Positions 3,305 to 48,889 of a stretch of DNA of 64,000 nucleotides are shown here, piece by piece (the stretch's first letter is position 1; every line of letters begins with the position of its first letter). The notes under the pieces were generated by a model, which saw only the letters and a list, made by a program, of their open reading frames with translations, was not told the DNA's origin and made no database searches. The position numbers and the translations under genes are program-made. This DNA comes from an uncultured Alphaproteobacteria bacterium (GTDB lineage: Bacteria > Pseudomonadota > Alphaproteobacteria > Rhodobacterales > Rhodobacteraceae). The stretch is from the NCBI GenBank assembly GCA_963768205.1, contig CAVYHB010000003.1, positions 55,346 to 119,345 on the forward strand, read 5' to 3'.

Positions 3305-3343
3305 TCCAAGTGCCCCGTTTGACCGCCAAGTAAGGAAAGGACG

Positions 3344-3754
3344 TTGTCCGAAACCAAAGGAATGAACCACCTTGGACTGACAGTCCGCGATCTTAATCTG
3401 ACCACGGCATTCTTTGTCGAGGTGCTAGGGTGGACCGAAACCGCCCGTGATAGGGATTACATAGGGATTACGCGCGCAGCACCGTCACCGACGGCCAGAT
3501 TCGCCTTACTCTTTGGCAGATCAAGTCGGACAACCCGGTCGCCTTTGACCGCAAGACCAATATCGGGCTACATTATGTCGCCTTGAACGTTCCCACCGAA
3601 GGCAATCATGAACGGTTGGCGAGGCTAAACCGCAAATGGCCCGGCGTGAGTGTCGAATTCATGCCGGAAGTGATGGGCTTGGGGCCACGCAAGCACATGA
3701 TGATCGCCGAACCCGGCGGCATCCGAGTTCGAGCTCTTTTGGAATGGCGCCTGA
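3344..3754 (+). pseudogene. VOC / glyoxalase-family protein, disrupted by an 11-bp tandem duplication plus one further indel near 3728.
   Basis: The N-terminus reads MNHLGLTVRDLNLTTAFFVEVLGW. After the duplication the protein continues in another frame as TVTDGQIRLTLWQIKSDNPVAFDRKTNIGLHYVALNVPTEGNHERL...MMIAEPGGIRV. The likely C-terminus ELFWNGA-stop (TGA 3752-3754) lies in the third frame. Confidence 0.7.
3451..3472. repeat. 11-bp tandem duplication inside the VOC gene.
   Basis: The sequence reads tagggattaca (3451-3461) followed by tagggattacg (3462-3472). Removing one unit restores ...ARDRDYARSTVTDGQIRL... Confidence 0.85.
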
Positions 3755-3762
3755 CCCAGGGC

Positions 3763-4644
3763 CTAGATGTTCAGATACCCGCGCATCAGGACATAGCCCT
3801 GCCCGCCAACCTTGACCCCGCTGATATTATCGCGCGGACCCAGAACCTCGACCTGCGCCTGACCCGGACGGCCCAGCCAGTGACCCTGTTCGGCGACGAA
3901 ACGCGGCGTGTCGAGATAACCCTCGGCCCAGAGATAGGCCGCCATCTCGCCGGTGGCGGACCCGGTGAACGGGTCTTCGGGCGGCATCGGCGGCGGCAGC
4001 AGCAGGCGCGCGAAGGTATCGCCGCCTTCGCTGACGCCTTCAAGCGTTACCCAGAACGGCTCTGTCACAGCGCCGCCCGAAAGACCGGCGGCCTCGTGAA
4101 ACCGCTCCAGCGCAGCCAGATCCAGCTGCGCGCGGCGCAGGGTGTCATGGTCCTTCAGGACAGTGATGCAGTGGCTGGCCCCGGTCGACACGATACGCGG
4201 CTCACCGACCACATCCTCTGCCGTCAGCCCCGCCACGGCGGCCACGATCCCGGCATCGACCCGCTTGCCGAAGACGGGGCGTTTCTGCATCATCGTGATC
4301 ATCGGCGCGGATGCGTCGCCGTCGATCTTGACCGGGATCACCCCGGCGCCGGTCTCCAGCCTGACGGATCCGCCTTTGATGCGCCCCCGGTCGAGCATCG
4401 AGGCGACCGTGGCGATTGTCGGATGCCCGGCAAACGGCAGTTCGCGTCCGGCGAGGTAGTAACGCACATGGACGTCAGCGCGGGCTGACGGCCCGAGGAA
4501 GGTGCATTCCGACAAACCGGTCTCGCGCACGATCGTCATGCACAACTCGGCATCGAGATCGGCGGCGTCGTAAATCACCGCGCAGCCATTGCCGCCGAAG
4601 GCGCGCGCCGTGAAGGCGTCGACCCAGTCGAATTCCAGCGGCAT
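3763..4644 (-). CDS. PhzF-family isomerase (phenazine biosynthesis-like protein).
   Basis: Intact 293-aa ORF. It carries VDAFT...GN.CAV, the catalytic context SECTFL, and GHPT and STG motifs typical of PhzF/YddE. Confidence 0.85.
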   Translation of the reverse strand: MPLEFDWVDAFTARAFGGNGCAVIYDAADLDAELCMTIVRETGLSECTFLGPSARADVHVRYYLAGRELPFAGHPTIATVASMLDRGRIKGGSVRLETGAGVIPVKIDGDASAPMITMMQKRPVFGKRVDAGIVAAVAGLTAEDVVGEPRIVSTGASHCITVLKDHDTLRRAQLDLAALERFHEAAGLSGGAVTEPFWVTLEGVSEGGDTFARLLLPPPMPPEDPFTGSATGEMAAYLWAEGYLDTPRFVAEQGHWLGRPGQAQVEVLGPRDNISGVKVGGQGYVLMRGYLNI

Positions 4645-4874
4645 CAGTGGACGTTGACGGGGGATAGGTCGTTCTGACGTGCCAGTACGAATGCCATCTT
4701 GCGGTCGCGCACCAGCGCCAACCGCTCTCCGGCGGCGTTGTGCACCGCGAACAGGGTCTCGACGCCCGCAGCCTGCTCCTGCACTTCGCTGGGCAGGTCG
4801 GCGACCAGGACCGGGCGGATATAGACGATGTTGCCTTGGTCCGCGGCCCCGAAATCATAAGGATGGTTCATCAC
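4644..4874 (-). CDS. DUF1150-family small protein.
   Basis: 76-aa ORF reading IVYIRPV...LFAVHNAAGERLALVRDRKMAFVLARQNDLSPVNVH. It has the usual position directly downstream of an alphaproteobacterial Hsp20 gene. Confidence 0.75.
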   Translation of the reverse strand: MMNHPYDFGAADQGNIVYIRPVLVADLPSEVQEQAAGVETLFAVHNAAGERLALVRDRKMAFVLARQNDLSPVNVH

Positions 4875-4888
4875 ATTGCTCCTTCCGG

Positions 4889-5302
4889 CTAGCCGCGATT
4901 GATCTTGATCGTCTGAACAACGCGCTCGGGCTCGGCCTTGTTCAGATCGACGTGCAGAAGCCCGTTTTCCAGTGCCGCCCCGGCGACATCCACGCCTTCG
5001 GCCAACACGAAACTGCGCTGGAACTGGCGTGCCGCGATGCCGCGATGCAGAAACACCCGGTCGTCGTCCTCCTCGGACTGGCGCCCGCGGATCATCAGCT
5101 GCCGTTCTTCCACGGTGATCGACACGTCATCTTCACTGAACCCGGCCAGCGCCAGGGTGATCCGGTAGGAATTCTCGCTGGTCTGCTCGATATTGAACGG
5201 CGGGTAGCCGTTGTTCTCGGATTTCGCGGTGCGCTCCATCAGCCGTTCCAGCTGTTCAAACCCCAGCAGATAGGGATGCGCGCCCAATGTCATCTTCGTC
5301 AT
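4889..5302 (-). CDS. Hsp20 / alpha-crystallin family small heat-shock protein.
   Basis: The internal start MTKMTLGAHPY of ORF 4889..5779 gives 137 aa. The protein carries YPPFNIEQTSENSYRITLALAGFSEDDVSITVEERQLMIRG and AALENGLLHVDL. Confidence 0.9.
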   Translation of the reverse strand: MTKMTLGAHPYLLGFEQLERLMERTAKSENNGYPPFNIEQTSENSYRITLALAGFSEDDVSITVEERQLMIRGRQSEEDDDRVFLHRGIAARQFQRSFVLAEGVDVAGAALENGLLHVDLNKAEPERVVQTIKINRG

Positions 5303-5368
5303 CTTGTCCCGTCCTTTTCGTAAAGCGACAGTGCGTTTCCGGCCCCGTTCCGGCGACCGACATGCAAA

Positions 5369-5397
5369 ATATGGGTTCGGCGGCGCGGCTCTGCAAG
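5369..5397 (-). promoter_or_regulatory. RpoH (sigma-32)-type promoter candidate for the hsp20-DUF1150 unit.
   Basis: The minus strand reads CTTGCAG-N15-CCCATAT about 70 nt upstream of the hsp20 ATG. This resembles the sigma-32 consensus CTTGAAA-N13-15-CCCCATNT. Confidence 0.45.
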
Positions 5398-5486
5398 GGC
5401 ACGCGGCGTCGCATTTTCCTTGATCGAAAGCGTATTCGGGGTAGCCTCGGGTATCCGTTTGCCGAAAATCACTCAAGGAGCAGTGG

Positions 5487-5705
5487 ATGAACGCATCGCG
5501 CGAAATGGAGGAGAACGAGGTGCTGAAGGTCGAGCTCGAGGTGCTGCGCCGCGAACACCGCGATCTCGACGAGGCCATCGACGCCCTGCAGGACAGCCAG
5601 CGCGCCGACCAGCTGCGCTTGCGGCGGCTGAAAAAGCAGAAACTGTATCTGAAGGACAAGATCGCCCAGATCGAGGACAAGCTGACGCCCGACATCATTG
5701 CATGA
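5487..5705 (+). CDS. DUF465 (YdcH-like) family protein.
   Basis: 72-aa ORF reading LRREHRDLDEAIDAL...LRRLKKQKLYLKDKIAQIE, the family signature. Confidence 0.85.
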   Translation: MNASREMEENEVLKVELEVLRREHRDLDEAIDALQDSQRADQLRLRRLKKQKLYLKDKIAQIEDKLTPDIIA

Positions 5706-5753
5706 GCCAATGGGCTGGCTATAGTGCCCGCTCTGTCAGGTAAGGGGCGCTTC

Positions 5754-6233
5754 GTGACCGTCAAAGCAGGCATCATCATGGGCAGTCAGTCCGACTGGCC
5801 CACCATGCGTCAGGCCGCCGAGGTGCTCGACGAACTGGGCGTTGCGCACGAGGTCCGCATCGTGTCGGCCCATCGCACGCCCGACCGGCTTTGGGACTAT
5901 GGCAAGGGCGCCGTAGGCCGCGGTCTTCAGGTCATCATCGCCGGCGCCGGCGGAGCCGCGCACCTGCCCGGCATGGTCGCCTCGAAGACCCGCTTGCCGG
6001 TGATCGGCGTTCCGGTCCAGACCAAGGCGCTTTCCGGCGTCGACAGCCTTTATTCCATCGTGCAGATGCCGCGCGGCTATCCGGTCGCCACCATGGCCAT
6101 CGGTGGCGCAGCCAATGCCGGGCTGATGGCGGCCGCGATCCTCGCGCTGCAGGATGCGGACCTCGCGCAGCGTCTCGACGACTGGCGCGCCGCGCTTTCA
6201 GCCTCGATCCCCGACACGCCCGTCGATGACTGA
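5754..6233 (+). CDS. purE: 5-(carboxyamino)imidazole ribonucleotide mutase.
   Basis: The protein carries [32 protein letters not shown] and PVIGVP. I prefer the GTG at 5754 because an AGGGG RBS lies 6 nt upstream; the ORF track starts at GTG 5724. Confidence 0.95.
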
Positions 6234-7303
6234 GCCGCTTCCGCAAGGCGCCGCGATCGGCATCCTCGGCGGCGGCCAGCTTGGCCGGATGCTGTCGGTC
6301 GCCGCCGCCCGCCTTGGCTACCTGACCCACATCTACGAACCCGGCGCCAACCCGCCCGCGGGCCACGTCGCCGCATCGCGTGACCACCGCGGACTACGAC
6401 GACCGCGACGCGCTCACGGCGTTTGCCGCCAGTGTCGATGTCATCACCTACGAGTTCGAGAACATCCCGACCGAGGCGCTCGACCTGCTGGAATCGCACC
6501 GTCCGATCCACCCCAACCGCCGCGCCCTGGCGATCAGCCAGGACCGGCTGTCCGAGAAGGAATTCCTGCGCGGTCTCGGCCTTGCCACCGCCCCTTTCGC
6601 CGCCATCGACGGGCCGGACGATCTGACGACTGCGTTGGCGGTTACCGGCGCCTCGGCGATCCTGAAAACCCGTCGCTTCGGCTACGACGGCAAGGGCCAG
6701 GTCCGCGTCACCGACGCCAGTCGGCCACTGATGCCCTTGCCGCGTTGCAAGGCGCGCCCGCCATCGTCGAGGGCTTCGTCGATTTCAGCCACGAGATCTC
6801 GGTCATCGCCGCGCGCGGGCAGGACGGCTCGGTCGCCTGCTTCGACCCCGGCGAGAACGTCCACCAGGACGGCATCCTGCGCACCACCACCGTCCCGGCC
6901 CCGGCGCAGAACCGGCGCGATACCGACGCGGTCCTGATCGCCGCCAACATCCTGAACGCGCTCGACTATGTCGGCGTGCTCGGGGTCGAGCTCTTCGTCA
7001 CCGCGCGAGGGCCTGATCGTCAACGAAATCGCCCCGCGCGTGCACAATTCCGGCCACTGGACCCAGAACGGCTGCGCCAGTCGACCAGTTCGAACAGCAC
7101 ATCCGCGCCATCACCGGCTGGCCGCTTGGCGACGGCACGCGCCATTCCGACGTAACGATGGAGAACCTGATCGGCGACGACATCGCCGGCCTGCCCGAGT
7201 TGGCGACGGACCCGTCCGCGCGATCCACCTCTACGGCAAGGCCGAGGCGCGGCCGGGCCGCAAGATGGGCCACGTCAACCGCATCACCAACCTGAAATCG
7301 TAA
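6226..7303 (+). pseudogene. purK: 5-(carboxyamino)imidazole ribonucleotide synthase (N5-CAIR synthetase); frame broken about 5 times.
   Basis: ATG 6226 overlaps the purE stop. Conserved blocks are spread over three frames: IGILGGGQLGRML; VTTADYDD...DVITYEFENIP; ILKTRRFGYDGKGQ; IVEGFVDFSHEISVIAARG; LIVNEIAPRVHNSGHWT; FEQHIRAI; and HLYGKAEARPGRKMGHV. Breaks lie near 6370, 6725, 7010, 7080 and 7210. Confidence 0.9.
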
Positions 7304-7360
7304 GCCAGATCTTCATCTTTGGTTTTCAAGAATTCCCGCCGGAGGCTCCGCCGCCTGCAA

Positions 7361-8141
7361 TCAGCGCGCCAGCAAGGCTCCGACGTCCAACAGGAAAGAA
7401 CGATCCTCGCCGCGCCGCCCGGCCGCCCGGTCCAGCGCGTTCGACAGGGTCAGCGAGGCATCGAAACGTCCGGTTTCCAGGAACTCCAGAACCTGCCCGA
7501 TCACGATCGGGTTCATCATCATGAAAGTATGCGTCACCGGCAGCGTCAGGTGCGCGTCCATCCCTTCGAGCCTTGGTCGAGGCGACCGACACCTTGCCGT
7601 CGTCGACCCCCTCGATCAGCGACGAATAGACCGGGTTCAGCGACTGCGATCCGGCGATGATCCCCAGTTCGAACCGCGCCTGCCCCAGCGCAAGCGGCAC
7701 CGATCCCGCATCGGTCCCAAGCTCCAGTCCGGCGGGCCCGTTGATCCATTCGAACGGCGCCAGATCGCCCAGCGCGTCGACCAGTTCCGACCCCTTGTTC
7801 GGCGGCCCCATCATCACCACGCGCCCCATCTTCGCGGGGCGGTTGCCGTCGAGCCACAGCCGGACGAGGATGCCGCCCATCGAATGCGTCACGAAATGCA
7901 CCGGCTCGGCCTTGCCACAGGCGCGCACTGCGGGCGACACCGCGATATCCACCAGTTGCTCGATCGGCATCTCTGTGGACGGATAGTCCTGGTTCACGAC
8001 GCGGTATCCGGCCCGTTCCAGCACCCCGGCCATCACCGCCATCGAACTGGAAGTGCGCGCCAGCCCGTGCAGCAGCACGACGCAATCGGCCGCCGCGACG
8101 GCGGGCATCAGAAAGGCGCAAAGGGCAAGTACGTACCGCAT
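7361..8141 (-). pseudogene. Secreted alpha/beta-hydrolase (lipase/esterase-like); one frameshift near 7560.
   Basis: It begins with the signal-like [18 protein letters not shown], followed by VVLLHGL and the nucleophile elbow HSMGG. The C-terminus [33 protein letters not shown] lies in ORF 7361..7561. Confidence 0.8.
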
Positions 8142-27559: not shown

Positions 27560-29100
<1,541 letters not shown>

Positions 29101-29661: not shown

Positions 29662-29970
29662 GTCCACCCTTCCGATGTTCTGGCCCCGAAACGTACTCGC
29701 GAAGCGCGATCCAGGGCAACATAAGTTACGCGCCTGTCGCGCACGCCGTCGAAATCGGCGCCGGTCTAGCAGAGCAATTTGCAGCCCGCAACCGGCTTGG
29801 CATCGACCCTGAAAAACGAAACACGCGCGATAACAGTGGCTTACCGACCACACGCCGGAAAGCATGGTAAAATGTTCGCCCGGAACACCGCATTTTTTTG
29901 TCAGGATTTGCCAATTCCCGCCGCACAGGCGAAACCGGCGGGTGGATAGCCCGATCAGCGCGACAGGATT

Positions 29971-30712
29971 TCAGACCGGTTTGGCCTCCGGCACCGTCAG
30001 CCCTTCGAGCACCCGCAGCGGCCTGCGGACCTTCTCGGCAAGGCCCTTGGGCCGGGCATATTCCTCGATACTGGCCTCGACCATCAGAACGCCGCCCGCG
30101 AACCGCGACGATATCCGCCGCCCGGTACGTTCCCAGAAGGCGCCTGTCTTCAGCCAGAACCGCCGGTCCGACGGCGGCTGGAACAGCGCCGCCACATGGC
30201 GCTCGGGGACAAAGCCATGGCGTTTGAGCTGGTTTTCAAGCTGGCCCAGCGAATAGGGCCGGCCGAAGCCGAACGGCGTCTTGTCGCGCCGCGCCCACAG
30301 ACCGCCGCGGTTCGGCACGATGAACAGCGCCCGGCCGCCCGGCGCCAGCACCCGCTTGCATTCTTCCAGCACCGCCGAGGATTCTCGCTGGTTTCCAGCC
30401 CGTGCAGCAGCACCAGCTTGTCGACCTGGCCCGTCTCCAGCGGCCACAGCGTTTCCTCGCACAGCACCGAGACATTGGGCTGCCCGGCGGGCCAGGGCAT
30501 CACTCCCTGCGGCCCCGGCATCAGGCCGACAACCCGCGTGGCACTTTGAGGTAGGGCCGCAGCAGCGGCACGGCAAAGCCGAAGCCGACCACCGTCTGGC
30601 CGCTTGCCTTCGGCCACAGATGCACCACCTGATCGCGTATGGCCCGCTGCGCCGCACGGCCAAGGCCGGTCCGGTAGTAGAAATTCCGCAGGTCGAGCAC
30701 GTCCAGATGCAT
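29971..30712 (-). pseudogene. Class I SAM-dependent methyltransferase; frameshifts near 30540 and 30390.
   Basis: The N-terminus is [29 protein letters not shown] and [25 protein letters not shown] follow in other frames. It is divergent from gloB. Confidence 0.75.
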
Positions 30713-31541: not shown

Positions 31542-31730
31542 AGGCTATTCCCCGATCCTACGCAGCGCGTTGCCAATCTGCCCGGAAAATCGGCGTCAAA
31601 TATATTTGTGACCGGTTTTGAAAAGAAAATCCTTGAAGCGCGGCCAGGAAAACCGAACTTTAAGAGGTAGAGGCCATGGTGAGGATGCGGCCCCGGCCCA
31701 TACCCCGCCCAAGTGTAAGGAGCACGCAAC

Positions 31731-34052
<2,322 letters not shown>

Positions 34053-34073: not shown

Positions 34074-34105
34074 GGGCCGCGCGCCCCCGGTGCGCGGTCC
34101 CTTTT
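34074..34105 (+). terminator. Rho-independent terminator after clpA.
   Basis: GGGCCGCGC...GCGCGGTCCC (stem with a 1-nt bulge) is followed by TTTTGTTG, about 20 nt after the clpA stop. Confidence 0.7.
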
Positions 34106-34319
34106 GTTGTGGGCGCCTAGCGTAAAGAAGCCTCGAAGGACACTGACGCCCCGCGCATTCGGTCAGTTTCCGCCGGTTTCACGGTTCCGCCACCTATACG
34201 TGGCCGGCACATCGTGGTTCGTGTTAAGGTTGAGTTGTGGAAATTCTATCTACCACACCGTGCGCTGTCTTATCTTGGCACGCCACCTGCAATTTGAACC
34301 CAGCAAAAGGAGCCGAGTC

Positions 34320-34682
34320 ATGGCACGCGGCGATTTCAACTACATTCCGGTCAATCGAACATTCAATGCCGGCAACCCAACATTCGAACGGAACTTCACG
34401 GTCGAGCTTTCCGGCTCGCAATCAGTGGTCGATGACGGCTATCTGCTGATCACGGTTCGAAGCGTCGATGCCGCCAGCCACCAGATCCTGATCAACGGCA
34501 ATCAGCTAAGCGGCTTTGACATCCCCTTGCCGCCGGGCAATTCCGATGCCTGGCTGACCTACATGGACCGGATTCAACCCGGCGCCCTGCAAGGAGGCAC
34601 CAACGAGCTGGAAATCCGGCGCATCGGCAATGACAATTTCGTCGTGAAAGACGTTGTCGTGCATTGGCGCGAGGCTGGCTGA
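34320..34682 (+). CDS. Orphan 120-aa protein (hypothetical; beta-rich by composition).
   Basis: AGGAG lies 7 nt upstream of ATG 34320. The protein reads MARGDFNYIPVNRTF...NELEIRRIGNDNFVVKDVVVHWREAG. I recognise no family. The upstream 200 bp is visibly AT-richer than its surroundings. Confidence 0.5.
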   Translation: MARGDFNYIPVNRTFNAGNPTFERNFTVELSGSQSVVDDGYLLITVRSVDAASHQILINGNQLSGFDIPLPPGNSDAWLTYMDRIQPGALQGGTNELEIRRIGNDNFVVKDVVVHWREAG

Positions 34683-34774: not shown

Positions 34775-37420
34775 CTACTTCTCGGTCAGCTTCAACTCGA
34801 TCCGTCGGTTCTGTGCTCGGGCCTCTGCGGTGTCCGCCGCATTCAGCGGCTGGTATTCCCCGAACCCGGTCGCCGCCAGCCGATCCGGCGGAAAGTCGAG
34901 AACGTCGGTCATGTACCGCACCACCGACAGCGCCCGCCCCTGGCTAAGTTCCCAGTTGTCGGCGTATTTGCCGCCGCCCGAAATCGGCACGTTGTCGGTG
35001 TGTCCGTCGATACGAACCACCCAGTCGATCTCTGGCGGGATATCGCCCGCCACGTCGCGCAGTATCCCGGCGACGCGTGCGATCTGCGCCTCGCCCTCGG
35101 GCGACAACGTCACGTCGCCGATCTCGAACAGCACTTCCGATGAGAACACGAACCGGTCACCCTCGATCCGCACGCCCTCGCGGTCTTCCAGCAGCGCCCG
35201 CAGCCGCCCGAAGAATTCGGACCTGTAGGCCTCCAGCCGCTTGGTCTCTTCCTCCAACCGCTTGCGTTCGGCCTCCTCAAGCGCCGCCCTCGCCCGCTGC
35301 TCGGCGGCGACCTTGGCCAGTGCAATGTTCAACTGGCTGCCCAGCGTCTGAATCTCGACCTGCGCTGCTTCGTCCTGCTCGATTGCGGCGTCCAGCAACG
35401 CCTGAAGCGACCCCAGTTGCGCCCGCAATTGCGCCACTTGCTGATTAAGCAGTTCTTCCCGGCGCTGCGCCTCGTCCGATATCGCCTCCCGCTCGCTCAG
35501 CGCGGAATTGGCGGTGGCCAGCAGCACTTCCATCTCCTGCGCCCGGGTCAGCGCCGCATCGGTCGCCTGCTCGGCAGTCGTCTTGGCTGCCAGCGCCGAG
35601 GCCAGCCGCTGCCGCAGATCCGCCTCGTCACCGACCGACCCTTGCAATGCCTCGACCTCGGCCAGCGCCTGCGCCAGCGCCGCGTCGCGGTCGGCCAGAT
35701 TGCCCTCAAGCTCGGTTTTTGCCAGCAGCGCCTCGGCCAGCCGGTCGTCCAGATCGGCCCGCGCCGCCCGCGCCGCCGCCAGCAAGGTCAGCGTCTCCTC
35801 GGCCTCCTTGCGCTTGGCCTCAAGCGCCAGCGTCATCGCTGTCAGTTCGGTGTCCGCGGCCTTCAGCCGCTCCCGCAACGCCGCCGCCGCAGCCGCCTCG
35901 GCCAGGCGCGCCGCCTCCTCCTCGCTCAACCGCGCCTCGACCCCGGTAAGCCGTTCGCGCAACCGCTCGGCAGCCGCCGCCTCGGCCAACCGCCGCGCCT
36001 CCTCGTCGCTCAACTCGGTTTCCAACGCCGCCAGGCGCTCGCGCAATTGCTGCGCCGCCGCCTGCTCCAGCAGCCGCGCCGCCTCTTCGTCGGTCAGGTT
36101 CTGCTCAACCGTCGCCAGGCGCTCCTGCAACGCGGCCAGCGCAGCCTTCTCGGCAATCCGCGCCGCCTCGGTCTCGGTCATCGCCGCTTGCGTATCGGCC
36201 AGCCGCTTGCGCAACTCCTCTGCCGCGGCCAATTGCGCCAGCCGCTCGGCCTCGGTTTCGGTCAGCGTCGTGTCAAGGTCGGCCAGCCGCTGCTGCAACG
36301 TGGCCGCCGCCGCCTGCTCGGCCAGCCGCGCCTTTTCCTCTTCGCTCAAGCTCACTCGCACCGCCGCCAGTTCCGCCTGCAACGCCGCCATTGCCGCCGC
36401 CGACCCCTCGCCCGTGGCCGTCGCTTCGGCCAGCGCCGCCTCCAGCCGTTCCAGCCGCGAGGCCAGGCTTCGCTGTTCGATCGACCCGGCCAGCACCGCG
36501 GCCTCCGAGGCGCCAAGCGCGGTTTCCGTCTCCGCCAGCCGGTCGCGCAATTCGCCCAGCAGCGACAAAGCATCGGCGCGCGCGCCCTGCTCCTCGGCCA
36601 GGCTCGCCTGCAACGCCAGAATCTGCGATTGGAATTCCTCACCGCGCGTCACCGCCACGGCCCGGGCCGAACTTTCCTGGCCCAGCGCCGCCGTCAGTTG
36701 CGCCAGCCGCGTGTTCAACTCCGCATTCTCGCCCTGCGACCCCTCCAATTGCGCCAAGGCATCGGCCAGAGAGGCCTCGCGCGTCGCCACGTCGCGGCGC
36801 AGGTCAGCCACCAGCGCCTCCAGCGCCTCGCGCCGCGCCGCGGCCAGCCGCGCCGCTTCGGCCTGCGCGTCGATCTCGTCCCGCGACGCGGCCAGCGCCA
36901 GTTGCAGCGCCTCCTGCTCGGAGATCAGCCTCGCATTCTCGCCCGCTGCCGCCTCCAGGTCGGCGGTCAGCGCGACGCCCTCGGCCCGCGCCGCGTCACG
37001 TTCGGACAACAGTGAAGCGACCTGCGCCTCGAAGCTGGTGATCCGCGCCGACTGCGCCGCGATCTCGGCAGCCTGTTCGGCGGTGCGCGGTCTGCAGCGC
37101 CGCGATCAGTGCGGCCTGCGCCGTCTTGCGTCGTCGCGCGCATCGGCCAGCGTGGCGGTCAGGCCCGAATCTCTTCTTCGAGATTAAAGGCGCGTTGCTG
37201 TTCCAGCCCCAGCGCCTGCGGCCAGCGCGTTGACCTCGGCGGTCAGCGTCGTCGAGCTCGGTTTCCTGCCCCGAGATCGTTTCGCGCAGCACGAACTGCA
37301 CGACCATGAAGATCGTCAGCACGAACATCAGCACCAGCAAGCAGCGCCGGTCATCGCATCGACGAAACCGGGCCAGATGCTGCCCGACACGCGCTGCACC
37401 GATCTGCGGGTCAGCGCCAT
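34775..37420 (-). pseudogene. MotB-like protein of about 880 aa: N-terminal plug/TM, a roughly 550-aa coiled coil and a C-terminal OmpA-type peptidoglycan-binding domain. The first ~410 nt carry about 7 indels; the remainder (34775..37009) is intact.
   Basis: ATG 37420 follows GGAAGGG. The N-terminus reads MALTRRSVQRVSGSIWPGFVDAMT + LLVLMFVLTIFMVVQFVL; compare the E. coli MotB YADFMTAMMAFFLVMWL with its essential Asp. The C-terminus reads FSSEVLFEIGDVTLSPEG...RIDGHTDNVPI...NWELSQGRALSVVRY...ATGFGEYQP...NRRIELKL, a canonical OmpA_C domain. Confidence 0.8.
35846..36349 (-). repeat. Six tandem 84-bp (28-aa, four-heptad) coding repeats inside the coiled coil.
   Basis: Residues 221-388 of ORF 34775..37009 form the units L(S/T)(E/D)(E/T)EAxRLAExAAAxxLRERLAxxxxx. 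Examples are LSEEEKARLAEQAAAATLQQRLADLDTT and LSDEEARRLAEAAAAERLRERLTGVEAR. Confidence 0.85.
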
Positions 37421-37464
37421 GGCCTAGCCCTTCCGGCGGCGCCCGCGGGCGCCGTCGTCGCGCG

Positions 37465-38627
37465 TCATGCATCGCGCACCGCCTTGGTCAGCGCGGCAAG
37501 GTCGACGCGCAGGTCGGTCGTGGTTTCCTGCCGCCCGGCCGACATCTCTTCGAGGATGCGCAGCAGCTGCACGTCGATCGACCGCAGCCGCATCCGGCTT
37601 TCGGCGTCGACTGCCCTCGCCGTCGCCCTGCGCGTCTCCAGCACCTCGAACAGCTGTGCCTGCCCGTCGGCGATCCGGTCCAGCGCACTCGGCCGCCGGC
37701 GTCGTCGCCGGTCCATCCGCTCGGTCATCCGCTCGATCGCATCGGCCAGCTTGCCCAGCCGTTCGTCGACCATCGCGCGGCTGACGTCGGACTGCGTGAA
37801 GATCGTCTGCAGCGATTCCATCTGCTCGGCCATGTGGTCCAGCACCGCGACCACGGCGCCCTGGTCCGCCGCCGCCCTCGCCGTCGCCGGTGGAAAAGCC
37901 CAGCCGGGTGATCGTCGACAGCCATTCCTCCAGCTCGCGGTAGAACCGGTTCTGCCCGTGGCCGGCAAACAGCTCCAGCAGGCCCACGACCAGCGATCCC
38001 GCCAGCCCCAGCAGCGACGAGGAAAACGCAACGCCCATGCCGCCCAGCTGCGCCTCGAGCCCGGTCATCAGCCGCTGGAAGACGGCCATGCCGCCCTCGC
38101 CCTCGTGCGGCGCCAGCGACTGGATGGTCTCGACCACCGCCGGAACCGTTGTCGCCAGGCCATAGAACGTGCCCAGAAGGCCAAGGAAGATCAGCAGGTT
38201 GACGATGTAGCGCGTGATGTCGCGCAGCTTCGTCGATCCGGGTCGCGACCGAATCCAGGATCGACCGGGCCGAGCTCGCGCTGATCTGCATCCGCGCCCC
38301 GCGCGTGCGCAGCAGCGCCGCCAGCGGCGCCAGCAGCCGCGGCGTTCCGATACTCCTCGCGCGCGCGGCTGTCCGCGGCAAAGCCGACGATCCAGTTGCA
38401 CCGAGGTGACCAGCTGCAACACCTGCCAGAAACAGGCCAGCACGCCGATCAGGAAGACAAGAACGATGAAGCCGTTCAGCCAGAGGTTGGCCAGGAACAC
38501 CGGCAGGACCGCCGGCAGCGCCAGCACAGCCGCCCACGGCCACCAGCACCAGCACGACCAGCATCAGGAGAATCTGACGCACCGGCTGAGAAAAGTACGG
38601 CTCGACCTCGCGATCCGGCTGGTCCAT
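37465..38627 (-). pseudogene. MotA/TolQ/ExbB-type proton-channel protein with a C-terminal helical extension of about 150 aa; about 4 frameshifts.
   Basis: The N-terminus is MDQPDREVEPYFSQPVRQILLMLVVLVLVA. The channel core reads ITRYIVNLLIFLGLLGTFYGL...GVAFSSSLLGLAGSLVVGLLELF. The tail reads VLDHMAEQMESLQTIF...RLRSIDVQLLRILEEMSAGRQETTTDLRVDLAALTKAVRDA. The pieces lie in ORFs 37725..39233, 37424..38527 and 37465..38031. The stop lies 44 nt before the MotB-like start. Confidence 0.75.
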
Positions 38628-38644: not shown

Positions 38645-39247
38645 TTATTTTGCTGTGCGCAAGATAGGTGGAACGCCGACGTGCCAACACCCGTTCTGTG
38701 TTGCACCTATATTGCGCAGAACTTGCACCCTTTTTGCCAGCCAGCTGCAGATCGGCATCCTCAATGCCCAGCTCGGCCAGGTGGGATCGGCGGTGTTGTA
38801 CAGGTATTCGGTGTTCGGCCCGCGCCCGCCGACGGCACCGGCGATGATGCCGGCCTGTTCCTCCAGCGGCAGGCCGCCGCAGTACTGCACGTGATCGGTG
38901 TCGACCACGTAGGTCACCGCCTCGACGCGGCGTCCGTCGTGCAGGTCGATATGCAGCGCCTTCTCCAGATAGGCCGACGAGATCAGCTCGCGTTCGCGCA
39001 GGTAGTCCAGCGTCGCTGGCGCGGTCTCGGACGGCACGCAGAACGCCAGCCCGTGACAGCAGGCTCCGGCATGCTCGTCCAGCGCCAGCACCAGTCCCGG
39101 CGCCTGCGGCGTGCCGCGATGGTGGATCGAGCGCATGCAGAACGTCCGCGCATAACCCGGCAACGTCGCCAGCACCCGTTCGGTGAAGGCAAAGCCCGGG
39201 TTCCACATCAGCGAGCCGTAGCCGAACACCCAAAGCGGTTGATCCAT
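38645..39247 (-). pseudogene. chaC: ChaC-family gamma-glutamylcyclotransferase; paired frameshifts near 38785 and 38745.
   Basis: From ATG 39247 the protein carries LWVFGYGSLMWNPGF, LVLALD and RERELISSAY. The segment HLAELGIEDADLQ lies in another frame. Confidence 0.85.
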
Positions 39248-39313
39248 GTGAACTGGTCCTTTCCTCTGCCGCTCTATAATCACAGCAGGTACGGGGGCGT
39301 CAAAGGGGGGCAG

Positions 39314-48267: not shown

Positions 48268-48889
48268 TCAGTTCTTGGCGTAGAATTCGACGACCAGGTT
48301 CGGCTCCATCACCACCGGGTAGGGCACGTCGCCCAACGTCGGAGTGCGGGTGAAGGTGGCGGTCATCTTGTTGCCGTCGACGTCCAGGTAGTCGGGCACG
48401 TCACGCTCGGCCAGGCCTTGCGGCTTCCAGCACGATGGCCAGTTGCTTGGACCGGTCGCGGATCTCGATCACGTCGCCTTCCTTGACGCGGTAGCAGGGG
48501 ATGTTGACCCGCTTGCCGTTCACCGTGACATGGCCGTGGTTCACGAACTGGCGCGCGGCGAACATGGTCGGCACGAACTTGGCGCGGTAGACCACCGCGT
48601 CGAGGCGGCGCTCCAGCAGGCCGATCAGGTTCTCGCCGGTGTCGCCGCGGACCCGCTCGGCCTCGGCATAGATGCGGCGGAACTGCTTTTCGGTCAGGTC
48701 GCCGTAATAGCCCTTCAGCTTCTGCTTGGCGCGCAGCTGGATGCCGAAGTCGGACAGCTTGCCCTTGCGGCGCTGGCCGTGCTGGCCGGGGCCGTAGTCG
48801 CGGCGGTTGACCGGGGATTTCGGACGACCCCAGATGTTCTCGCCCATCCGGCGGTCGAGCTTGTACTTGGCAGAGGTGCGTTTGGTCAC
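48268..48889 (-). pseudogene. rpsD: 30S ribosomal protein S4; one indel near 48420.
   Basis: A GTG start at 48889 follows GAAGGAG. The protein begins [37 protein letters not shown]. The C-terminus [46 protein letters not shown] lies in a second frame. The length is 622 nt. Confidence 0.95.

Follow-up and report, generated by a model that had tools for sequence, protein, structure and literature searches.

A tailed ExbB/TolQ/ZorA-like protein and a wall-binding coiled-coil protein form a conserved gene pair, a candidate housekeeping membrane motor, in Rhodobacterales

Two adjoining genes and their interrupted reading frames

We analysed a 64,000-nucleotide stretch of a Rhodobacteraceae contig (the window), in which an earlier examination of the letters alone (the original prediction) had singled out two neighbouring genes as a non-flagellar, stator-like system. 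Three-frame translation placed both genes, A and then B, on the minus strand within 34.7-38.7 kb, and the motifs LLGTFYGL, SSLLGLAGSLVVGLLELF, WPGFVDAMT, and LLVLMFVL were all found in the minus-strand translations of this region. Gene A (37424-38627) encodes an ExbB/TolQ/ZorA-like putative channel subunit, and gene B (34775-37420) encodes a protein with a transmembrane (TM) helix, a coiled coil, and an OmpA-like domain.

The extent of A was drawn by tblastn and frameshift-aware alignment. From its start at the ATG at 38627, the gene reads about 397 codons after correction of small insertions and deletions (indels), and the corrected length of about 395-398 residues compares with 392-410 residues in intact homologues; the two-gene arrangement of the original prediction holds, with A somewhat longer than the 387 residues given there. 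The core of the protein (residues ~1-245; 37890-38627), delimited with AlphaFold 2 (AF2) and Foldseek, contains the motifs FLGLLGTFYGL and AFSSSLLGLAGSLVVGLLELF. The remaining ~150 residues (37424-37889) form a helical tail, predicted to be cytoplasmic, which ends in the conserved motif DAESRMRLRSIDVQLLRILEEMSAGRQE. B runs from the ATG at 37420 to a stop codon at 34775-34777, as judged from the NCBIfam model NF006542 and frameshift-aware alignment, and its corrected length of about 882 residues agrees with the 880 originally predicted. At the N-terminus of the product, a short basic stretch on the cytoplasmic side precedes the TM helix IWPGFVDAMTGLLLVLMFVLTIFMVV (together 37285-37420), with the codon of Asp21 at 37358-37360. 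A coiled coil rich in Ala, Leu, Glu, and Arg, predicted to be periplasmic, follows (residues ~46-745; 35190-37284), recognised by its composition and periodicity and including six tandem copies of an 84-nt repeat (35864-36332; Tandem Repeats Finder and a protein repeat listing). The protein closes with an OmpA/MotB-type peptidoglycan-binding domain (34805-35131; Pfam PF00691). All these features lie on the minus strand.

The two genes are co-directional, as had been claimed, and the spacing of 44 nt given with that claim depends on which stop codon is accepted for A. A stop at 37465-37467, after ...AVRDA, leaves 44 nt before the ATG of B. With one of the guide proteins (P0004), an additional frameshift near 37469 moves the stop to 37424-37426, 3 nt before the same ATG. 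The gap between A and B in intact homologues is 1-3 nt.

Both reading frames are broken. An intact open reading frame (ORF) of 744 codons occupies 34775-37009, and the fragments 5' of it are scattered over several frames. About 14 single- or double-base indels were located in 37080-38535 by a frame plot of the G+C content at third codon positions (GC3) and by a frameshift-aware dynamic programme that aligned intact homologue proteins with the window DNA. Seven or eight of them are in A (38531, 38398, 38352, 38228, ~37870, 37707, ~37688, and ~37469) and six are in B (37344, 37247, 37219, ~37165, ~37130, and ~37085), the remainder of B being intact. The original prediction had recognised that both genes carry indels and had counted about seven within 37.02-37.35 kb; we located six at 37085-37344 and a further seven or eight in A. 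The coding frame in the GC3 plot, which is independent of any alignment, jumps at the same places. The indels lie outside homopolymer runs. The ATG at 37420 shares its frame with the long ORF, as had been noted (both are in tblastn frame -1 and both coordinates are 1 modulo 3), and the net frame is restored between them. Correction of the indels from orthologues, which the original prediction had proposed, gave the lengths of A and B stated above.

If these indels were real, A and B would be decaying pseudogenes in the source organism and no working system would exist. The uneven density of the lesions speaks for such decay: about 14 fall in 37.08-38.53 kb, within 1.5 kb, which is the densest cluster seen in the window, and we detected none in the 2.3 kb of B that adjoin it (34.8-37.0 kb) or in the genes for aminotransferase, prephenate dehydrogenase, gloB, atpG, OSCP, and chaC. 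However, comparison of the window with the proteins of syntenic Halocynthiibacter and Roseovarius loci showed that other genes, essential ones among them, are also broken, with one frame break in rpsD (48271-48889), two in atpA (27563-29100), at least six in clpA/B (31704-34049), two in a methyltransferase gene (29965-30712), and one in the DUF2125 gene. No organism could carry such lesions in rpsD (ribosomal protein S4) and atpA (ATP synthase alpha). Because these genes are broken in the same way, we read the A and B frameshifts as sequence errors in a window that carries many small indel errors. The fragments of A and B are about 80% identical to intact homologues and contain neither in-frame stops nor an excess of substitutions, and this, together with the net frame regained between the ATG at 37420 and the long ORF, also argues against decay, which we consider highly improbable.

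Fold, channel residues, and wall-binding domain of the two proteins

The best homologue of A is 82% identical to it, and the sequence links of A to canonical families are weak. With the Pfam MotA_ExbB model (PF01618), A of the window scored 12.9 bits and three intact members scored 15.1-17.5 bits, below the cut-off of 22.9. Alignment by hhalign with the Escherichia coli proteins gave probabilities of 46% for ExbB, 29% for TolQ, and 6% for MotA, and the ExbB and TolQ alignments extended over the GLxGTxWG motif only. A profile search of A against PDB sequences returned only spurious matches of the tail to coiled-coil and designed proteins. The strongest sequence links were to ZorA: the PADLOC models ZorA1 and ZorA3 matched one family member (P0028) with E-values of 4.5e-10 and 3.5e-8, respectively. 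The NCBIfam models ZorA_2, ZorA_3, and ZorA_4 scored 15-23 bits against cut-offs of 100-500.

The predicted structure placed A more clearly. An AF2 monomer model, built from an alignment of 86 diverse homologues down to 32% identity, had a mean predicted local distance difference test (pLDDT) score of 84.2, with values above 90 across most of the membrane core; an earlier run from 17 close homologues had been unusable (pLDDT 48). When this model was compared with the PDB using Foldseek, all of the top 50 matches were ExbB, TolQ, or ZorA chains, and neither MotA nor PomA was among them. The match probabilities were at least 0.9 (1.00 for most) and the template-modelling scores per target reached 0.61, with E-values of only about 0.01. 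The ExbB and TolQ targets, of 215-230 residues, covered about 205-227 columns of the A model. The Foldseek result thus bears out the MotA/TolQ/ExbB channel core claimed originally, with the qualifications that the core is nearer to ExbB/TolQ/ZorA than to MotA and remains under the Pfam MotA_ExbB cut-off.

The model contains four hydrophobic helices (residues ~19-42, 50-72, 136-160, and 195-219) and three tail helices (254-305, 308-333, and 340-387), in agreement with the C-terminal extension, helical and about 150 residues long, of the original prediction. ExbB (244 residues), TolQ (230 residues), and MotA (295 residues) have no such tail. Judging from the topology of the hydrophobic helices, the tail should be cytoplasmic. 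Its end motif is invariant in Rhodobacterales, and the pattern LRNID...GR...ELR recurs in most aligned members at 33-40% identity. Within the core, G148, G151, T152, G155, G206, and F227 are invariant in the 86 sequences and S203 is conserved in at least 90% of them; Thr152 aligns with the Thr of the GLFGTVWG motif of ExbB/TolQ in the hhalign alignment. Modelling and alignment together show A with a predicted ExbB/TolQ/ZorA fold, conserved Thr-bearing channel helices, and a conserved helical tail.

B is much more readily assigned by its sequence. The reconstructed protein passed NF006542 (PRK09039.1-1, "peptidoglycan -binding protein") with 804 bits against a cut-off of 388. Its N-terminus, MALTRRSVQRVSGSIWPGFVDAMTGLLLVLMFVLTIFMVV, consists of the basic stretch and then the Asp21-bearing TM helix. 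The signature W-P-[GAV]-[FY]-V-D was found in all 75 complete Rhodobacterales orthologues, in all 116 gamma- and beta-proteobacterial orthologues, and in that of Sinorhizobium meliloti, and the TM Asp is kept in 192 of the 192 orthologues inspected, as expected from the MotB-type TM signature in the original prediction. The OmpA-type domain predicted at the C-terminus was recovered with Pfam PF00691 (E = 6e-15). A phmmer search of the PDB with the C-terminus identified MotB (6ysf, E = 2e-17), PomB (E = 3e-15), and MotS as the nearest solved domains, and the match reaches into the helix preceding the domain. The NCBIfam MotD, MotS, and MotB models matched B below their cut-offs, and PADLOC ZorB3 matched it with an E-value of 4.5e-20. 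The translation of B thus shows one predicted TM helix bearing the invariant Asp, then a coiled coil, and finally a peptidoglycan-binding domain of the MotB/PomB type.

The coiled coil, which should be periplasmic, begins right after the TM helix, with no MotB-like plug and linker. It comprises about 700 residues without a single proline (A 27%, L 16%, E 15%, and R 9%), and a hydrophobic period of 3.5 residues is dominant in nine of the ten 70-residue windows taken over it. A coiled coil in place of the MotB linker had thus been predicted correctly, its length being nearer 700 than the 550 residues stated. The repeat unit is 28 residues, equal to four heptads, of the form L[ST][ED]EEAARLAE.AAA..LRERL. 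B is 342 residues long in Sinorhizobium, 425-446 residues in most Gammaproteobacteria, and 435-1126 residues in Rhodobacterales (median 622 in 75 species), and the 882 residues of the window protein lie in the upper part of this last range. Its length thus differs nearly threefold among close relatives. The tandem 28-residue repeats would account for the spread within Rhodobacterales, and the giant coil appears to be a lineage-specific expansion by these repeats and not a ruler of fixed length. The distribution of lengths over the 75 species also suggests that the coil has grown and shrunk repeatedly. At about 0.15 nm per residue, a coil of 150 residues, as in Sinorhizobium, would measure about 22 nm and the 700 residues of the window protein about 100 nm. 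The very long rigid spacer envisaged in the original prediction therefore needs revision: the long coil is there, in a family in which B ranges from 342 to 1126 residues, and it would reach about 100 nm if straight.

These features could also be those of a passive tether or scaffold of the envelope, in which B links the inner membrane to the wall and A is a mere chaperone or anchor, with no ion-driven movement. A very long, variable, and repeat-built coil resembles structural spacer proteins, the sequence of A is highly divergent from those of working motors, and no output partner gene is conserved beside the pair. On the other hand, the Asp of B and the channel Thr and Gly residues of A do not vary among alpha-, beta-, and gamma-proteobacterial members with an overall identity of 33-35%, which is hard to explain without ion-coupled chemistry, and the conserved, predicted cytoplasmic tail of A has no role in a pure tether. 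We regard a passive tether as unlikely.

Distribution, genomic setting, and the Sinorhizobium orthologue

For either subunit, homologues fall into more than 8000 clusters at 90% identity (for A, by a word-indexed search). An exhaustive profile search with A, which covered 1.84 billion representatives, returned 595 clusters (50% identity) with E-values below 1e-30, most of which align over their whole length. Named members of the A family occur in Rhodospirillales, unclassified Alphaproteobacteria, and Nitrococcus. A genome scan gave at least 580 matching places, the best 80 of which belong to Rhodobacterales species only; the more distant members were reached through the representative search, look-ups of clusters and their encoding contigs, and a match in a plasmid collection.

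Both A and B were found by tblastn in 80 of the 80 Rhodobacterales loci, and B directly follows A in every one of them with readable downstream DNA. The two genes stand side by side in four distant taxa as well, Nitrococcus and Inmirania (Gammaproteobacteria) and Sinorhizobium among them, and the Nitrococcus orthologue of B passes NF006543. This goes some way towards the phyletic map of the pair for which the original prediction had called. In Nitrococcus and Inmirania, the pair is flanked by genes unrelated to the Rhodobacterales neighbours and therefore behaves as a self-contained two-gene module.

In Rhodobacterales, the surroundings of the pair are conserved. Within 6 kb of it, ChaC was found in 76 of the 80 loci, DUF2125 in 71-73, Clp in 62, and an M23 peptidase in 38. 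In the window, a chaC-like gene (38645-39283, minus strand; Pfam ChaC, E = 1e-43) lies directly upstream of A, as chaC does in three related loci, and chaC-A-B forms one syntenic housekeeping site across the Rhodobacterales loci retrieved; we treat chaC as a syntenic neighbour of the system. A DUF7383 ORF (34104-34682, plus strand) is convergent to B. The M23 peptidase gene takes the position of DUF7383 in two related loci, and there was no M23 match within the window. The window order is atpG-atpA-OSCP-methyltransferase-gloB-clp-[DUF7383]-B-A-chaC-DUF2125-extensin_C-tyrC-aminotransferase ... rpsD, which is the order of the Rhodobacterales loci in inverted orientation. Among the window genes checked, there were only housekeeping genes (ATP synthase, Clp, GloB, ChaC, prephenate dehydrogenase, rpsD, dnaE, glutaminase, and APS kinase) and no flagellar, Tol, Ton, or gliding genes, consistent with the earlier claim that no flagellar, Tol-Pal, TonB, or gliding genes are nearby. 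Likewise, no flagellar, Tol, Ton, or Zorya effector neighbours were found at 88 related loci.

A/B relatives were not found among 2.9 million viral contigs (IMG/VR). The matches in the plasmid collection are limited to replicons of 3.5-4.6 Mb, and the one inspected is a mislabelled chromosome. The pair is vertically inherited, belongs to the core genome, and is not mobile. The findings that could have overturned the original prediction, namely residence in a flagellar or Tol/Ton cluster elsewhere, lack of conservation of the TM Asp and channel residues, and separate inheritance of the two genes, were not made: no such cluster was seen at the 88 loci, and the residues and the pairing are conserved.

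One Rhodospirillaceae metagenome contig (6964-9330) has a different arrangement. Downstream of A there is no MotB-like gene, only a 41-codon ORF followed by RodZ-like genes on the opposite strand. A different, proline-rich OmpA-domain protein is encoded upstream of A. The arrangement may be a real variant or an assembly artefact. An inositol monophosphatase gene and a Sel1 gene are located just upstream of A on the same contig.

The setting bears on the possibility that the pair is a reduced or ancestral Zorya-like anti-phage sensor of envelope damage, with effectors encoded elsewhere or missing. In its favour, ZorA models are the best hidden Markov model (HMM) matches of A (PADLOC E = 4.5e-10, with NCBIfam ZorA_3 and ZorA_4 matching weakly), ZorB3 matches B at 4.5e-20, and ZorA too has a C-terminal helical tail. 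These PADLOC matches are best taken as a sign of relatedness and not of Zorya membership. Defence systems are usually sporadic and scattered in islands, but in all Rhodobacterales loci retrieved the pair is found at a single syntenic site of the core genome. In addition, no ZorC/D/E/F/G-like gene stands beside the pair in the window or the related loci examined. The window neighbours are chaC and DUF7383, and those of the related loci are housekeeping genes only, so that the earlier statement that ZorC/ZorD-like genes are absent holds. The low NCBIfam ZorA scores, the absence from viral contigs, the restriction of plasmid-collection matches to very large replicons, and the location of the long coil on B and not on A further argue against a defence system, which is very unlikely in our estimation.

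A spare or specialised flagellar stator, that is, a paralogue of MotAB, was also considered. Some sources name members of the family "flagellar motor protein MotA" or "chemotaxis protein MotB", and the C-terminal domain of B is nearest to those of MotB, PomB, and MotS. The fold of A, however, matches ExbB/TolQ/ZorA and not MotA/PomA (6% probability with MotA by hhalign), its TM2-TM3 loop is only about 60 residues, and B has a coil of 150-900 residues instead of the MotB plug and linker. The pair was located in a flagellar gene cluster at none of the 88 loci, and a transposon screen for motility in Phaeobacter inhibens yielded the motA and motB of the flagellar cluster and no second pair (PMC11974857). 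A flagellar stator is the least probable of the explanations considered here. The same study reported an orphan second motA that is more than 12-fold up in Phaeobacter ctrA and cckA mutants (PMC11974857); a link of this gene to the A family could not be established.

In S. meliloti, A (368 residues, "MotA/TolQ/ExbB proton channel family protein") abuts B (342 residues, "peptidoglycan -binding protein"). The pair was found on CP090106.1 (3079322-3091996), a 3.72-Mb PLSDB record entitled "Sinorhizobium meliloti Ak57 plasmid pSymB". The record carries rpmE, purE, thiE, and rgsF and is evidently the mislabelled chromosome; in the plasmid collection, three other Sinorhizobium records (about 3.52 Mb) and a 4.6-Mb Shinella record look similar. 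The pair is found two genes downstream of rgsF (SMc03995), within positions 3334-7973 of the CP090106.1 stretch, and the identity of rgsF was checked with published primers, which match at 3962 and 4456 of the stretch. RgsF, which is essential and contains Sel1 repeats, belongs to the growth zones at the pole and septum (PMC7327166). Furthermore, arithmetic on published coordinates places the ChvI-binding fragment F10 inside the A orthologue, SMc03993; F10 came from an in vitro screen for the ExoS/ChvI envelope-stress regulon (PMC3687685). The proximity to rgsF and the ChvI fragment are weak leads, and neither is evidence of function. The intervening gene SMc03994 has been called ribosomal protein S21 (PMC9611204) and appears as inositol monophosphatase in the gene order obtained here; one of these assignments is probably wrong. 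The Rgs proteins of S. meliloti do not include a MotA-/OmpA-like pair: RgsC is an M15 peptidase and RgsD is a pilin-like wall binder.

Proposed mechanism and comparison with known motors

We propose, with a probability of roughly 0.6, that A and B constitute an uncharacterised, vertically inherited, housekeeping membrane motor of the MotA/ExbB/TolQ/ZorA type that is driven by ions. Its stoichiometry, rotation, and cellular role are inferred, the mechanism by analogy with the solved ExbBD, TolQR, MotAB, and ZorAB complexes. Five copies of A would surround a dimer of B (A5B2), with the B dimer inside the A ring and its Asp pointing towards Thr and Ser residues of A. The proton-motive force would drive cycles of proton uptake and release at the Asp, which would turn the A ring stepwise around B. 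B would be the stationary part, fixed to the cell wall through its OmpA-like domain, and its coil may be a parallel dimeric stalk. The output would be delivered on the cytoplasmic side through the conserved tail of A, as in ZorA, and not by a periplasmic partner of the TonB/TolA kind; we favour this direction because no TonB/TolA-like partner gene was found and the tail of A is conserved. In basal members, in which B has 342-446 residues and the coil about 150-250, the coil could be long enough to reach the wall. In Rhodobacterales, where it would have been lengthened by the 28-residue repeats, it would have to lie obliquely, run along the wall, or be folded back.

Several observations weigh against this proposal. 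The sequence links of A to canonical families are weak in the Pfam (sub-threshold), hhalign (46/29/6%), and Foldseek (E about 0.01) comparisons alike. The Rhodospirillaceae contig carries A without an adjacent B. The end motif of the Rhodobacterales tail is not obvious in Sinorhizobium A, and a universal tail-borne output is therefore not assured. Finally, a straight coil of about 100 nm, of unconstrained length, would fit poorly with a simple upright stator stalk, since it could not stand upright in the periplasm.

The most likely role of the proposed motor would be an envelope-related housekeeping function, for instance monitoring or preserving the membrane-wall relation. We favour such a role because of the wall anchor, the universal vertical inheritance, and the two weak leads from S. 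meliloti; a part in motility or phage defence is unlikely. A bolder conjecture, of which we are ourselves doubtful, is that the pair represents a hitherto unrecognised housekeeping class of 5:2 motor, possibly the ancestral stock of Zorya's ZorAB, in which the long in-plane coil of a wall-anchored B dimer would act as a mechanical probe or torsion element between membrane and wall, and proton-driven rotation of A would signal to, or act on, cytoplasmic partners through the tail, linking the proton-motive force to wall growth or envelope stress. The two S. meliloti leads point weakly in this direction.

No study of the A/B family was found in the literature searched. The pair is not mentioned in the searched passages of a survey of MotAB and its non-flagellar relatives (mBio 2025, PMC12505986) or of a survey of periplasmic force transducers (MBE 2025, PMC12204202), nor does it appear in the Rhodobacter sphaeroides CenR regulon paper. 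The databases offer only the names "biopolymer transporter ExbB", or none, for A and "peptidoglycan -binding protein" for B, in line with the earlier remark that no function is assigned. The pair can be called an undescribed system in so far as no study of it was found, but B is already covered by five NCBIfam models (PRK09039.1-1 to -5). B of the window (NF006542) and the Nitrococcus orthologue (NF006543) are members of this series, which consists of naming models only, and A has no NCBIfam model of its own. The family is thus known to databases by name, and it is a large, old branch with an unusual domain layout and not categorically new.

Flagella, TonB-dependent uptake, outer-membrane maintenance, gliding, and Zorya immunity all run on ion-driven 5:2 motors, and each branch that has come to be understood has shown another bacterial use of the proton gradient. 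In all Rhodobacterales genomes retrieved, the pair sits at one and the same site; the marine roseobacters, which are abundant, belong to this order. The pair is also present in rhizobia and several Gammaproteobacteria, and the names ExbB, MotA, and MotB given to its proteins are misleading. What a tailed, wall-anchored motor that serves neither flagella nor defence might do in roseobacters and rhizobia should interest specialists, and the question can be put to a direct test in S. meliloti, a genetically tractable species that has an orthologue.

In comparison with the known systems, the pair is of the MotA/ExbB-type ion-driven motor kind, but by the properties examined it is not a flagellar stator, a Tol or Ton system, or Zorya. 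With ZorAB (PDB 8qyd and 8vvn), it shares an ExbB-like fold with a C-terminal helical tail on one subunit and a TM Asp with an OmpA-type wall-binding domain on the other. ZorA models are the best HMM matches of A, and ZorA chains are among its Foldseek matches, some of the matched PDB entries naming ZorA tail deletions in their titles. The tail of A, in contrast, has only about 150 residues in three separate helices, B and not A carries the long coil, and the pair stands without ZorC/D/E/F/G genes at a core-genome syntenic site and in no defence island. A also scores far under the NCBIfam ZorA cut-offs.

MotAB and PomAB resemble the pair in the wall-binding domain, since the MotB, PomB, and MotS domains are the nearest solved ones to that of B, and in the order of abutting genes, A and then B. 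The hydrophobic segments and the model also point to an A N-terminus on the inside and four TM helices, as in MotA. Unlike MotA, A lacks the large cytoplasmic torque-generating domain and has no fold or profile match to MotA, and B has its coil in place of the plug and linker, with no flagellar gene context. GldLM is also a 5:2-type motor, and its two-copy subunit bears a long periplasmic shaft; GldM, however, consists of folded periplasmic domains, not a coiled coil, and is without a wall-binding domain. No sequence or fold match to GldLM appeared in any of the searches made here.

ExbB-ExbD and TolQ-TolR (PDB 5sv0, 9ddm, and 9kpz) provide the best structural matches of the A core, and the motif GL(F/L)GT(V/F)WG is common to A and ExbB/TolQ. 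A differs from these in having apparently four TM helices against three, in addition to the tail. B ends in an OmpA/MotB-type domain where ExbD and TolR have a small periplasmic domain of their own, and no TonB/TolA transducer gene accompanies the pair in the loci examined. The TM segment of B, with P-x-x-D followed by a Leu/Val-rich helix, presumably resembles those of TolR and ExbD. The domain logic of B may be described as that of a single chain joining a TolR part, a TolA-like helical segment, and a Pal-like domain. The layout of the pair, a ZorA-like tailed A together with a B that would unite TolR-like, TolA-like, and Pal-like parts, is a new combination of elements known from these systems.

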